From a virus (lineage: Duplodnaviria > Heunggongvirae > Uroviricota > Caudoviricetes): DNA of 3,879 nucleotides. Of the stretch, positions 2,025 through 3,830 are shown one piece after another (positions within the stretch are counted from its first letter, which is position 1; each line of letters starts with the position of its first letter). The DNA is taken from the IMG/VR virus record IMGVR_UViG_2740892235_000014; one strand, written 5' to 3'. The notes below the pieces were generated by a model. It was given only the letters and a program-made list of their open reading frames with translations, was not told the DNA's origin and searched no databases. The position numbers and the translations under genes are program-made.

Positions 2025-2228
2025 TCAGGCTGGTGGGCAATTACCTTGCTTGTTGGGGCCGTATTGTGCTGCCATTTTCATCCGTTCAGAACGTGAATAT
2101 TTTTTTAGAAACTCATCAAGGACAAAAGCGCATGGAGCGAATCTTTCTGATTCATGCTCGAGCGCCATATTTTCGTGCTCTCTGTTCGTTTTTTGCGATG
2201 GTGTATTGGTTGATTCTTTATTGGTCAT
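2025..2228 (-). CDS. Hypothetical small protein (67 aa), paralog of the 2685-2912 ORF
   Basis: Minus-strand ORF starting MTNK. It shares the N-terminal MTN and a C-terminal motif FVLDEFLKKY (FALEDFVDKY in the paralog). It is preceded by the conserved 44-bp family A leader. No recognisable domain. Confidence 0.5.
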   Translation of the reverse strand: MTNKESTNTPSQKTNREHENMALEHESERFAPCAFVLDEFLKKYSRSERMKMAAQYGPNKQGNCPPA

Positions 2229-2285: not shown

Positions 2286-2390
2286 TTATTCTTTGGGTTC
2301 AATACCGCGTTGCTGTAATTCTTTTCGGATTATTCGTTTTATCCAAGCAGCTAAAGAGTCATCACCGTCTTGTTGTTGTGCTTTTTCCAT
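2286..2390 (-). CDS. Possible small ORF (34 aa, MEKAQQQDGDDSLAAWIKRIIRKELQQRGIEPKE)
   Basis: Found by manual translation of the minus strand; it is below the ORF-track size cutoff. Charged, helical-looking composition, weak SD (GGGAAAAG), and its stop abuts the family A copy 1 region. Could be spurious. Confidence 0.25.
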   Translation of the reverse strand: MEKAQQQDGDDSLAAWIKRIIRKELQQRGIEPKE

Positions 2391-2458
2391 CTTTTCCCGT
2401 AAGTCAGGATCTAAACGGAACTGGAAAGGAGGATTACCACGCCTTTCATTTTTGTGTG

Positions 2459-2486
2459 TTGACACGTCAATTACACTCCATATAAT
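2459..2486 (+). promoter_or_regulatory. Consensus sigma70 promoter P1 (TTGACA -16- TATAAT), plus strand, antisense to the minus-strand cluster
   Basis: -35 TTGACA at 2459-2464, 16-nt spacer, -10 TATAAT at 2481-2486; both hexamers match consensus exactly. Confidence 0.55.
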
Positions 2487-2492
2487 GTGTTT

Positions 2493-2508
2493 ATGTGTAT
2501 ATACACAT
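2493..2508. promoter_or_regulatory. Perfect 16-bp palindrome ATGTGTATATACACAT at the predicted transcription start of P1 (operator-like)
   Basis: Read directly; the reverse complement is identical. It sits 7 nt downstream of the -10 hexamer. Confidence 0.5.
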
Positions 2509-2530: not shown

Positions 2531-2645
2531 CAACGCCCCGCAGTGATGGGAACACATACGGGGCGTCTAACCAAACCATTAATTGAGGAACGATTATGGC
2601 TATAAAAGAGCATAGCTTACTCTTTATACACACACAAACGCCCCG
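2531..2645 (+). repeat. Family B module, copy 1: leader hairpin + TCTAACCAA + SD + ATG + about 16 codons (MAIKEHSLLFIHTQTP), homologous to 3279-3390
   Basis: Hairpin ACGCCCCG / CGGGGCGT (2533-2540 / 2559-2566), SD GAGGAA at 2585-2590, ATG at 2596, then TACACACACAAACG. It aligns block-for-block with copy 2. The downstream 240-codon reading frame looks like antisense junk (S/C/R-rich) running across the minus-strand genes. Confidence 0.6.
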
Positions 2646-2684
2646 GAAACGGAATAATCCGTTTCATAGTTCGGTTTTGTGCAC

Positions 2685-2912
2685 TCATCCTGGCGGTCGG
2701 TTTTTGCCGGATTTAAGCCGCCGTGGGTATTTATCGACAAAATCTTCAAGGGCAAATTTTTCTGGTGGCACTAAGCGCGGCGCTGGTGGTGGTATTTTTG
2801 TTCTGGTTAGTTCTTCCTCAAGTCTGGCGCAGGCTTCTGACTGCCTTTGCCGGATGATTTCATCATCTTGCGTTTGCGTGTCTTGTATTGGTGATAGTGT
2901 GTTGTTGGTCAT
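2685..2912 (-). CDS. Hypothetical small protein (75 aa), paralog of the 2025-2228 ORF; probably co-transcribed with the upstream RHH gene
   Basis: Minus-strand ORF starting MTNN, with an acidic, proline-rich middle and the C-terminal motif FALEDFVDKY. Preceded by family A copy 2. No recognisable domain. Confidence 0.55.
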   Translation of the reverse strand: MTNNTLSPIQDTQTQDDEIIRQRQSEACARLEEELTRTKIPPPAPRLVPPEKFALEDFVDKYPRRLKSGKNRPPG

Positions 2913-2920
2913 GATACTGC

Positions 2921-2964
2921 CCTGTAAAGCAATGCGCCGTAGTACCTCACACCACGGCGCTGAT
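2921..2964. repeat. Family A conserved leader element, copy 2 (44 bp, hairpin GCGCCG-N15-CGGCGC)
   Basis: 41/44 identical to 2237-2280. It lies between the RHH stop (2970) and the start codon at 2912. Confidence 0.65.
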
Positions 2965-2969
2965 AGTGA

Positions 2970-3149
2970 TTATTCTGATTCTTTGGCCTTGCGGCGCTGG
3001 CGGCGTTTGATCTCGCCTTCAAGTGCCGAAACGATAAATTGCCCTGTACTTTCGCCATCTTCCTTTAAATTTTCTACAGCATCAGCTATTGCGTGTGGTA
3101 CTCGAGCCTCAAGCTTTTTGGATTTTGCATTAACTGCTTTTGTTGCCAT
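2970..3149 (-). CDS. Arc-type ribbon-helix-helix DNA-binding protein (59 aa), putative transcriptional repressor
   Basis: Internal start ATG at 3149 with SD GAGGAA 8 nt upstream. The protein MATKAVNAKSKKLEARVPHAIADAVENLKEDGESTGQFIVSALEGEIKRRQRRKAKESE aligns with phage P22 Arc as I remember it: RWP-REVLDLVRKVAEENG-RSVNSEIYQRV versus RVP-HAIADAVENLKEDG-ESTGQFIVSAL. The 106-aa extension in the ORF track has no SD and a hydrophobic junk-like N-terminus. Confidence 0.7.
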   Translation of the reverse strand: MATKAVNAKSKKLEARVPHAIADAVENLKEDGESTGQFIVSALEGEIKRRQRRKAKESE

Positions 3150-3170
3150 ATCTGATTTCCTCGTTATTAG

Positions 3171-3251
3171 GTGGCTGACAGTATACACACAAGAAAACGG
3201 AAAAACACTATTGACGTGGCTGACACCCGTTACTAATATAGTGGCTGACAC
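3171..3251. promoter_or_regulatory. Three direct repeats of GTGGCTGACA (3171-3180, 3216-3225, 3241-3250): candidate operator array
   Basis: Exact 10-mer three times in the divergent intergenic region. Copy 2 lies in the spacer of promoter P2 and copy 3 at its predicted transcription start. RHH proteins typically bind direct or inverted repeat arrays. Confidence 0.5.
3211..3239 (+). promoter_or_regulatory. Sigma70 promoter P2 (TTGACG -17- TAATAT) for the plus-strand operon
   Basis: -35 TTGACG at 3211-3216, 17-nt spacer, -10 TAATAT at 3234-3239. It has the same position relative to the family B hairpin and ATG as P1 has in copy 1. Confidence 0.55.
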
Positions 3252-3278
3252 CTTTATCAAGGTAATCGATGAAAAGAC

Positions 3279-3390
3279 AAAGCCCCGCAAGTGTCGTTAC
3301 CACTCGCAGGGCTTCTAACCAACAACGTAAACTAGGAGCCGTTATGGTTGCTGTAAATCATATACCACACCTTGTACACACACAAACGGC
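3279..3390 (+). repeat. Family B module, copy 2: leader hairpin + TCTAACCAA + SD + ATG + first codons of the Icd-like ORF
   Basis: Imperfect 14-bp stem AAGCCCCGCAAGTG / CACTCGCAGGGCTT (3280-3293 / 3301-3314, 12/14 paired) with a 7-nt loop, SD AGGAG at 3334-3338, ATG at 3344, then TACACACACAAACG. Confidence 0.6.
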
Positions 3391-3541
3391 CTTTGTGTGG
3401 CGTTTTCTGGCACTGAGTGCCGGAGAATCTCAAATCATCCACGTAACCGCCTGGACGGAACGCGAAGCGCGTAACCGTTGCCCGTCCGGTTGTGTTGCTG
3501 TATTTGCCGCCCGTATTCGTCAGGAGGTGCGCCATGATTAA
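3344..3541 (+). CDS. Small protein (65 aa), tentatively Icd-like (host cell division inhibitor-like / P4 Ash-region type)
   Basis: SD AGGAG 5 nt before ATG at 3344. The protein MVAVNHIPHLVHTQTAFVWRFLALSAGESQIIHVTAWTEREARNRCPSGCVAVFAARIRQEVRHD fits my recollection of Icd-like proteins (VW-F-A, TE-EAR, V-FA-R); this is unverified. The alternative upstream start at 3269 (90 aa) has a weaker SD. Confidence 0.5.
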   Translation: MVAVNHIPHLVHTQTAFVWRFLALSAGESQIIHVTAWTEREARNRCPSGCVAVFAARIRQEVRHD

Positions 3542-3746
3542 TCTGTCACTTACTGACCTTAACCGCATTCAGTTTCGTGAGAAATTCACAGGGCAGCTAC
3601 TGGTCAATGTGGATAAAGGTCGCGTGGTGTGTAATTACCACTTACCAGATGAAGCAATTGTCGCCACAAGGGAATCATTACAGGAAATCACAAAACGTGC
3701 CGGAATGATTAACACGAATATTCAGGGGATGCTTTATGCACAATAA
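3534..3746 (+). CDS. Hypothetical protein (70 aa), translationally coupled to the upstream ORF
   Basis: Strong SD AGGAGG at 3523-3528, 5 nt before ATG at 3534. The start overlaps the upstream stop as ATGATTAA. The protein MINLSLTDLNRIQFREKFTGQLLVNVDKGRVV... has a balanced composition; no family recognised. The GTG at 3492 used by the ORF track lacks an SD. Confidence 0.6.
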   Translation: MINLSLTDLNRIQFREKFTGQLLVNVDKGRVVCNYHLPDEAIVATRESLQEITKRAGMINTNIQGMLYAQ

Positions 3747-3820: not shown

Positions 3821-3830
3821 NNNNNNNNNN
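3821..3830. other. Assembly gap (10 N)
   Basis: Ten consecutive n characters. Contiguity and reading frame of 3831-3879 relative to the upstream sequence cannot be assumed. Confidence 1.

Follow-up and report, generated by a model that had tools for sequence, protein, structure and literature searches.

The sequence analysed here is a stretch of 3,879 nt from a virus of the Caudoviricetes (IMG/VR record IMGVR_UViG_2740892235_000014; Duplodnaviria, Heunggongvirae, Uroviricota), hereafter the window, and the element under study is a consensus promoter on its plus strand, P_A (2459-2486), together with the perfect 16-bp palindrome that follows it (2493-2508). The window is essentially identical to chromosomal islands of several Escherichia coli strains. 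The identical island in NZ_AP024921 carries, in this order, int, alpA, small leftward genes, an Icd-like gene, several small open reading frames (ORF) and the genes for RepA helicase, single-stranded DNA-binding protein (SSB) and PerC, followed by a capsid module of major capsid, protease, portal, head-completion, HNH and terminase genes. Such a gene set has been described for phage-inducible chromosomal islands of the capsid-forming kind (cf-PICI; 10.1101/2022.09.08.507074), and the island, with int-alpA at one end, likewise contains a replication module and encodes capsid, portal and terminase of its own, but no tail proteins. Judging by this gene content, what the window covers is the left regulatory end of a capsid-forming PICI satellite of E. 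coli.

The region downstream of alpA holds two diverged tandem copies of one regulatory cassette, about 680 bp apart (repeats D1, D3, D4, D6 and D13). Aligned with one another and with their relatives, the cassettes resolve into five parts: a leftward gene for a small ribbon-helix-helix (RHH) protein, operators specific to the RHH type, a leftward terminator hairpin, a CTAACCA box, and the Shine-Dalgarno sequence (SD) and start of an icd gene. The start codon of the RHH gene overlaps the -35 of the early promoter and the operator sites surround its -10. Cassette A comprises the RHH-A gene (2286-2465, minus strand), P_A, the palindrome, the leftward terminator (2523-2566), the CTAACCA box (2567-2573) between hairpin and SD, and icd', that is, the SD GAGGA and the first 15 codons of icd (2585-2640, ATG at 2596), which align with the icd start of cassette B at 3344. 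The second, complete copy, cassette B (2685-3343), has the RHH-B gene (2970-3149, minus strand), an early promoter P_B (TTGACG-17-TAATAT, 3211-3239, plus strand), a leftward terminator hairpin (3270-3314, stem 3280-3314) and its own CTAACCA box (3315-3321), a motif present in nearly all cassettes; it leads into the intact Icd/Kil-like gene icd-B (3344-3541; NF033153, E = 5e-18), the first gene of the replication/packaging operon.

Comparison with relatives, collected mostly from a scan of viral contigs (a scan of genome contigs contributed 8 loci), clarifies how this arrangement came about. Single-cassette relatives (L004, L005 and several IMG/VR loci) have the same RHH gene and promoter upstream of an intact icd and a primase/helicase operon, and the same cassette occurs in the experimental model island EcCICFT073; a small RHH gene divergent from the early operon is present both there and in an EDL933 island. 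Relatives with two or three cassettes were also found, L003 carrying three in one island. In every stacked cassette, namely those of the window, L002, L003, L006 and seven IMG/VR loci, icd breaks off after codon 15 (past 2640 in the window) at one common junction, where CACACACAAACG is joined to CCCCGGAAACGG. Of 5426 complete E. coli genomes, 111 carry this junction, a single genome having it at three places at most. Because all stacked cassettes share it, we conclude that stacking arose once and that RHH/operator cores were later swapped between conserved flanks. P_A thus seems to lack a gene because stacking cut the icd of its cassette after codon 15.

P_A consists of TTGACA (2459-2464), a 16-nt spacer and TATAAT (2481-2486), a 12/12 consensus match in a promoter scan, with its start predicted at about 2493. 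It is the only exact TTGACA-N16-18-TATAAT match in the window, and dinucleotide-preserving shuffles yield none (0/200); promoter-like sites of the window taken together are not enriched (5 observed vs. 5.4 expected). A preliminary description of this DNA, made from the sequence alone, had rated P_A as good as sigma70 promoters get, and these figures agree with a real, strong-looking promoter. It had also found no convincing gene downstream, only antisense junk, and here the relatives tell otherwise: P_A is followed by a conserved 5' untranslated region (UTR), an SD and 15 icd codons, and icd is intact in single-cassette relatives. Orthologues of P_A lie directly upstream of an intact icd in six loci (L004, L005, L009, L010, L060 and L063). 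Among at least 11 cassette types, 44 distinct promoter regions retain TTGAC, each about 110-130 nt upstream of an icd start. The -10 of single-cassette type-A orthologues is usually TGTAAT with the +1 site ATGTGTAATGACACAT, and that of the window lineage is TATAAT with ATGTGTATATACACAT. Since the RHH protein and promoter region are the same in single-cassette relatives and immediately precede an intact icd there, P_A is, as judged by orthology, a genuine copy of the early rightward promoter of the satellite and no orphan, and it is predicted to be active. A search of the INPHARED phage collection with the promoter/operator region gave no match.

The palindrome, ATGTGTATATACACAT, is perfect over its 16 bp and begins 6 nt 3' of the -10, at the predicted +1, where the preliminary description had rightly placed it and where an operator would be. 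Its arms (ATGTGT/ACACAT) are kept in type-A orthologues and its centre varies (ATAT, AATG, AGTG); type A has a perfect or near-perfect palindrome at +1. The same offset from the -10 is seen for the 14-bp palindrome ATGGTAATTACCAT of type C, the RHH type closest to A (proteins 60% identical). More generally, every RHH type has its own 10-16-bp site, while the promoter retains TTGAC across 11 types. For 9 of these 11 types, the 10-mer immediately following TTGAC recurs, directly or inverted, just past the -10 with at most one mismatch. Mean mismatches in this test are 1.18 for same-type comparisons, vs. 3.68 for cross-type comparisons and 4.1 for shuffled windows, and no cross-type pair comes within one mismatch. 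YlcI-type cassettes have an additional third copy near the RHH start; in the control region of cassette B (3171-3250), GTGGCTGACA occurs three times (3171, 3216 and 3241) around P_B. The corresponding position of the first copy in cassette A, adjoining the -35, is occupied by ACGTCAATTACACT (2464-2477), which includes the heptad ATTACAC (2470-2476), repeated at 2507-2513. Our main argument for regarding these sites as probable RHH operators is that they covary with the type of RHH protein. They are repeated or palindromic, specific to each variant and overlap the promoter they would regulate, the second copy being weak in type A; as type A has no repeat beside the -35, its palindrome is read as an operator mainly by position. 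The comparative data support the operator reading, and the palindrome is most likely the RHH-A operator (designated O2), an assignment in which we place moderate confidence. Elsewhere in the window, 18 nt past the int stop, the intergenic region between int and alpA contains another perfect 16-bp palindrome, CAGTATGCGCATACTG (1236-1251).

RHH-A would be the protein acting at this site. Its gene encodes 59 aa from a GTG start, with GGAG 9 nt upstream, and its first three codons overlap the -35 of P_A. The protein matches phrog_228 ('Arc-like repressor', E = 1.5e-6) and, below the family cut-off, NF041551 (E = 5e-4); Pfam gives no match for either RHH protein of the window or for the small ORFs. 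The coding strand was judged by counting amino acid changes: 31 nt differences from a relative produce 4 changes in the minus-strand frame and 14 in the overlapping plus-strand frame, indicating that RHH-A is a real minus-strand gene under purifying selection. Substitution counts by codon position are uninformative in this respect, because the third positions of both frames coincide. In short RHH types, the complement of TTGACA encodes the conserved N-terminal x-Ser-Thr, and the beginning of the RHH gene and the -35 are therefore under mutual constraint. On this evidence RHH-A is a candidate Arc/Mnt-like repressor, with DNA binding as its predicted function. The start codon chosen for this gene by the PGAP annotation pipeline differs in strain 12E115 (L001), where a deletion in the P_A spacer moves it to an upstream ATG.

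Between the operator region and icd' lies the hairpin of cassette A, with its stem at 2566-2533 and a U-rich tail at 2532-2523 on the minus strand. Among 27 variants of this element in relatives, the minus-strand fold is the more stable in 24, with fold energies of -17.6 to -25.0 kcal/mol vs. -10.8 to -20.6 kcal/mol on the plus strand; for the hairpin of cassette B the values are -25.0 and -15.6 kcal/mol. Where the plus strand has A·C mismatches, the minus strand has G·U pairs, and one-sided changes are compatible with G·U pairing only on the latter. RNAalifold returns -22.5 kcal/mol, 13 consensus pairs and 3 compensatory changes for the minus strand vs. -4.8 kcal/mol and 8 pairs for the plus strand. 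The U-rich tail (e.g. TGTTTTTTGT) occurs on the minus strand only. Because stability, pairing and U-tail all favour the minus strand, we read the hairpin as a leftward intrinsic terminator; its interpretation as a plus-strand 5' UTR element or CI-like RNA was rejected on account of this strand asymmetry.

Since single-cassette islands have no leftward gene to the right of the hairpin, the transcript that it terminates must begin within or near the icd start. A candidate promoter on the minus strand (TTGTGT, 2637-2632; 17-nt spacer; TATGCT, 2614-2609) is in place there, and every lineage has, 42-45 nt upstream of the terminator, a TAnnnT element resembling a -10 (TATGAT, TATGCT or TACACT), which takes the extended form TGnTATGAT in Serratia, L006b and L015. 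Promoter candidate and terminator together predict a cis-antisense RNA of about 80 nt (2602-2523) that would cover the SD and ATG of icd' and fold into two stem-loops and a U-tail (-32.5 kcal/mol); its predicted counterpart in cassette B (3351-3270) would cover the icd-B start. Two features of sar- or OOP-like antisense RNAs, a terminator and overlap with an SD and start codon, are present, and the promoter is represented only by TAnnnT or TGnTATGAT at a fixed distance. In the stacked layout, the hairpin terminator would also stop a transcript of RHH-B and the 75-aa ORF downstream of it short of the RHH-A promoter region. Literature searches combining Icd-like genes with antisense control returned nothing relevant.

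The plus strand opposite the RHH genes is depleted of stop codons in a single frame, the one that shares its third codon positions with the RHH gene. Two long stop-free stretches result in the window: one of 250 codons (1834-2586), running from just past alpA through the antisense of the 67-aa ORF of cassette A, RHH-A and P_A to a TGA within the SD of icd', and a bridge frame of 240 codons (2596-3318), running from the ATG of icd' through the antisense of cassette B to the TAA within CTAACCA, 26 nt before the icd-B ATG. Across 43 distinct cassettes, the stop-poor frame has 1 stop antisense to the RHH genes, vs. 160 and 179 in the other two plus-strand frames, and 34 stops in the regulatory DNA, mostly terminal, vs. 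203 and 141. For nine representative types, no stop is found antisense to the RHH genes, when synonymous recoding would leave 10.3±2.6 or 6.8±2.0 (0/5000 as low), and between the RHH start and the end of the hairpin there are 2 stops vs. 20.3±4.1 in dinucleotide shuffles (0/3000 as low). The open stretch extends over 150-600 codons from the alpA stop or just past it, and ends either in frame with icd or at a stop that overlaps the icd SD or CTAACCA, the TAA of this box serving as the stop in some cassettes. Serratia has it as well, as do EcCICFT073 (433 codons, from alpA to the icd stop) and an EDL933 island; the same depletion was seen in L004, L007, L099, L100 and L013-L016.

Far from being junk, as the preliminary description had it, the frame opened by the icd' ATG is free of stops for 214-440 codons in 11/11 stacked cassettes, the other frames having 7-41 stops, and in 10 of the 11 it leads to the next icd, ending there, a short way before it, or in frame with it. 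Conventional proteins were considered for both plus-strand ORFs of the window and rejected, as neither has a PHROG hit and their amino acid sequence is poorly conserved compared with the minus frame; the bridge frame gave no protein-family match. The frame is nonetheless clearly being kept open, without conservation of its amino acid sequence. Its translation may shield rightward transcripts, begun at the alpA promoter or at an upstream stacked promoter, from Rho and bring ribosomes to icd. In work of 1999 attributed to Forti and colleagues, translation of the nested eta/kil ORFs of satellite P4 reportedly counteracts immunity-specific premature termination, which would fit this interpretation. 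So would the activation by AlpA, in EcCICFT073, of its own promoter and of a reporter placed downstream of alpA (PMC6092414).

Building on the orthology of P_A, the architecture of the cassettes, the covariation of operators with RHH types, the strand of the hairpin and the depletion of stop codons, we propose that P_A and its palindrome constitute the repressor-controlled early promoter of a stacked cassette that is still linked to the replication operon by a stop-free frame, a reading to which we assign a probability of roughly two in three. Tandem duplication or recombination would have placed cassette A upstream of the complete cassette B, cutting its icd after codon 15. RHH-A, bound at the palindrome region, would hold P_A off; once derepressed, P_A would most likely still supply the same early, icd-led replication/packaging operon. 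Its transcript, which retains an intact SD and an ATG (2596) opening a stop-free frame and should hence be translated across the roughly 750 nt antisense to RHH-B, would in this way be shielded from Rho. The short leftward antisense RNA ending at the hairpin would probably damp icd translation from basal transcripts, and P_B with RHH-B would provide a second, independently controlled entry into the operon.

Several observations weigh against this reading. The RHH assignment of RHH-A rests on weak scores: when RHH types A, C, D and E are combined in one profile, the two PDB sequences that rank highest are Mnt (E = 0.065) and Arc (E = 0.34) of P22, which align over the beta-strand motif PxFxxR. 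The AlphaFold2 (AF2) monomer model of RHH-A, with helices at 20-31 and 35-52, has low confidence (pLDDT 69), and a Foldseek search with it returned no PDB hit. Type A is one of the two exceptions in the 10-mer test, with 5/10 mismatches, making the two-site pattern weakest precisely in cassette A. A perfect palindrome with arms of at least 8 is present in 6.9% of first-order Markov randomisations of the window, so the significance of the palindrome rests on its position and on the comparison with relatives. Strain 12E115 (L001), listed as '100% identical', has a 1-nt deletion in the spacer (L001 12270-12290 vs. window 2471-2480), which makes it 15 rather than 16 nt and hints that the strength of P_A may be only loosely held. 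In one three-cassette relative, the bridge frame stops inside the next promoter and falls about 105 nt short of icd. Finally, the 11 stacked cassettes trace back to one event by their shared junction and do not count as independent cases.

Alternatives to the proposed control of P_A concern the palindrome and the promoter of RHH-A. The preliminary description envisaged the palindrome as an operator gating two overlapping, face-to-face promoters, P_A and a minus-strand TTGTGC (2526-2521)-17-TATATA (2503-2498) serving RHH-A. The plus-strand half of this proposal, a strong promoter with an operator-like palindrome, stands; the minus-strand promoter is weak and unconserved, which leaves the scheme as a whole doubtful. 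The sequence is present as described, with a 7/12 match and a -10 that lacks the final T, and the promoter scan of the window did not report it; in the orthologue L004 it reads TTGCGC-17-TCATTA, and the -10 of type C is TAATTA. YlcI-type cassettes use another arrangement, in which a conserved AGTATAC by the third operator copy provides a minus-strand -10, TATACT (5/6 match; 3180-3185 in the window), back-to-back with the early promoter. This element is likely the promoter of RHH-B, back-to-back with P_B. The short RHH types (A, C, D and E) do not have it, and no conserved canonical promoter for their RHH genes was found among the compared cassettes. What favours dual gating is geometry: the RHH-A promoter is confined to the stretch from the terminator tail (2523) to the start codon (2465) and must overlap the operator region, and a TTGTGN motif lies 3' of the terminator tail in several types. 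A promoter somewhere in 2466-2523, with autoregulation through the same region, is plausible. It is unlikely, in our estimate, that the palindrome serves something other than RHH-A, be it as a 5'-terminal RNA hairpin stabilising the P_A transcript or as a site for AlpA, a helper-phage protein or a host factor. Beginning at the predicted +1, it would indeed form the first hairpin of that transcript, and type A lacks a clear second copy beside the -35; other types, however, have at the same two positions direct repeats that cannot form a hairpin (GTGGCTGACA, GTGGGCCACAC), and the sites vary with RHH type, yet AlpA is the same protein (WP_000953271.1) across islands with different cassettes.

Two further explanations address the stack as a whole. 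Cassette A could be a decaying leftover of duplication, its promoter and palindrome intact merely because the event is recent and of no present function, as the truncation of icd' after 15 codons, the single junction that points to a single event, and the spacer of 15 or 16 nt among near-identical strains would suggest. Against such decay stand the purifying selection on RHH-A, a -10 in the window (TATAAT) that is closer to consensus than the TGTAAT of single-cassette orthologues, and the retention of SD, ATG and the 214-440-codon frame in all 11 stacked cassettes despite differing types of downstream cassette. The occurrence of the stack in 111 genomes, at up to three places in one genome and with three cassettes in one island (L003), argues in the same direction and makes a functionless leftover improbable. 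Instead, the chief product of P_A could be a long non-coding antisense RNA that silences RHH-B and the 75-aa ORF, by transcriptional interference or RNA pairing, and not the expression of downstream genes. A run from about 2493 would pass antisense through both (2970-3149 and 2685-2912), as the preliminary description had correctly noted, and the scan detected no plus-strand terminator-like site between P_A and icd-B, the first lying at 3379. Silencing as the chief role would leave unexplained both the retained SD and ATG and the depletion of stops in the frame of that very ATG, and an untranslated antisense RNA of about 750 nt is a typical target of Rho. We regard it as quite improbable, and as a side effect antisense silencing is compatible with P_A being an early promoter of the replication operon.

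The remaining features of the window lie around these elements. RHH-B belongs to the YlcI/YnfO family (NF041551, 60.5 bits, E = 1.2e-16; also annotated by PGAP), on which literature searches returned nothing relevant. Two small leftward ORFs lie downstream of the RHH genes: a 67-aa ORF in cassette A (2025-2228, minus strand), with a match to phrog_21027, and its 75-aa paralogue downstream of RHH-B (2685-2912, minus strand), whose coding status is uncertain because substitutions are too few. The stop of each RHH gene and the start of the 67- or 75-aa ORF are covered by a 75-nt element (2218-2292 and 2902-2976) that is 80% identical between the cassettes. Its hairpin, GCGCCG...CGGCGC (2250-2276 and 2934-2960), resembles a terminator on the minus strand, and the element may serve to attenuate transcription between the two leftward ORFs or to flank recombination when cassettes are exchanged. 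A motif of about 21 nt (consensus near TGCAACAACGTGACACAATCA) occurs three times upstream of alpA (1263-1303 and 1513-1533), and its copies are possible binding sites for AlpA or the arm domain of the integrase. An Rfam scan of the window at E<=1 found nothing over the promoter or the hairpins; its sole result, a sub-threshold match to BSnc120 at 1369-1447 on the plus strand (27.9 bits vs. a gathering score of 114), is essentially a hairpin, GGCATAAAA...TTTTATGCC, followed by TTTG, and resembles a terminator after int. Within codons 12-21 of icd-B, the hairpin CACACAAACGGCCTTTGTGTG followed by GCGTTTTCTG (3379-3399, plus strand) is terminator-like and a possible attenuator; only its 5' half is left at the truncation junction of cassette A (2629-2640). 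A run of ten N occupies 3821-3830, within an ORF starting at 3736.

Beyond the satellites, one type-A RHH/promoter cassette (L009) lies beside insertion sequence (IS) elements on the 60-kb plasmid pEC291_3 (NZ_AP027442), upstream of WYL, DUF1819 and DUF1788 genes in a BREX-like neighbourhood and not of a satellite replication operon. RefSeq calls are inconsistent: EDL933-type islands (L007 2058-2651; L100 1804-2547) have no RHH annotation, and PGAP calls the antisense plus-strand ORF in its place, naming it either a hypothetical protein of 247 aa or a pseudo 'Icd-like' gene. For annotation, the present comparison is of use in separating likely real ORFs from frames kept open for other reasons, since the RHH gene is sometimes missed or replaced by an antisense ORF.

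Phage P1 and P7 have an immI operon of c4 RNA, icd and ant, in which the trans-acting C4 RNA is encoded upstream on the same strand. The window shares with it an Icd-type first gene whose translation start is targeted by a small antisense RNA, here a predicted one, and differs in that this RNA is predicted to be cis-encoded on the opposite strand and that there is no Rfam C4 match. Stl and Rpr, the master repressors of Staphylococcus aureus pathogenicity islands (SaPI) and Gram-positive PICIs (PMC6092414), are encoded, like the candidate RHH repressors, by satellite genes divergent from an excision/replication operon. Helper-specific derepression would fit the many allelic specificities of RHH seen in these cassettes; in fold and size, Stl and Rpr are unrelated to the 57-113 aa RHH proteins. 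Gram-negative PICIs are reported to be induced through AlpA, with no global repressor known (PMC6092414), and the papers on cf-PICI (10.1101/2022.09.08.507074) and EcCIMP1 do not describe the regulatory region.

RHH/operator cassettes in Gram-negative PICIs, with their diversity and stacking, appear to be undescribed in the searchable literature. The same goes for the leftward terminator that, conserved and accompanied by a predicted antisense RNA, takes the place of IsrK/C4, and for the stop-free plus-strand frame through a repressor gene. An RHH gene with at least 11 operator specificities is a testable candidate for the missing repressor or immunity determinant of Gram-negative PICIs, and stacking together with a stop-free antisense frame suggests a route by which several inputs could converge on one replication operon. 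Joining these strands, one may tentatively suppose that enterobacterial PICI/P4-like satellites carry exchangeable, stackable RHH immunity cassettes which are the missing Gram-negative PICI repressors, that the plus frame is kept free of stops for Rho-resistant translation from the alpA promoter or P_A into icd, and that stacks work as an OR gate. Were this so, derepression of any one repressor would switch the operon on and silence downstream repressor genes by antisense transcription, stacking might broaden the range of helper phages able to induce the island, and selection would be acting, unusually, on translatability and not on protein sequence.

The two systems that come closest are those of satellite P4 and phage P22. 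The immunity region of P4 comprises P_LE, seqA/IsrK, the CI/C4 RNA and the nested eta/kil ORFs. Like the cassettes of the window, it lies downstream of an AlpA/Vis-like gene and heads the replication operon, and its first gene is Icd/Kil-like: the kil-type ORF that follows the CI RNA corresponds to the Icd-like gene of the window. A long ORF is a further shared trait, which in P4 is in frame with kil and carries the annotation 'cI gene product' (8584..8168). P4 has no divergent RHH gene or operator repeats, and the frame of the window crosses an oppositely oriented repressor gene. The P4 immunity RNAs are represented in Rfam as IsrK (seqA) and C4 (CI) (PMC3632133). Neither model (RF01394, RF01695) has a match in the window at E<=1, and both are likewise absent from L004, L005, L006 and L008, while the positive controls P4, L002 and L003 (last cassette) score 61-78 bits; P4-type RNA immunity by IsrK/C4 was rejected for the window on this basis. 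IsrK and C4 of L002 (5273-5458) and L003 (5952-6137) sit between the icd 5' end and a second Icd-like ORF, beside an RHH/operator cassette, and these two islands, to judge from this layout, combine both control systems. The island of the window is, by the same kind of comparison, a P4-like operon head with RHH/operator control and a predicted antisense RNA in place of P4 RNA immunity.

P22 immI encodes the RHH repressors Mnt and Arc and has the promoters Pant and Pmnt and the sar antisense RNA; the work on it is said to be that of the Susskind, Sauer and McClure groups in the 1980s. The layout is that proposed for the window: the gene of a small RHH repressor points away from a strong promoter whose operator lies at or around the start site, and a short antisense RNA with its own promoter and terminator, only predicted in the window, lies over the downstream ribosome binding site. 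Mnt and Arc are also the best PDB profile matches of the RHH-A family, if marginal ones (E = 0.065 and 0.34). We know of no cassette stacking or stop-free antisense frame in P22, and its immI regulates an antirepressor, whereas the target in the window is an Icd/Kil-like gene and a replication operon. A strong promoter with a palindromic operator by a small RHH gene is, in itself, an ordinary switch, for which P22 immI provides the closest analogue and P4 the closest homologous context.

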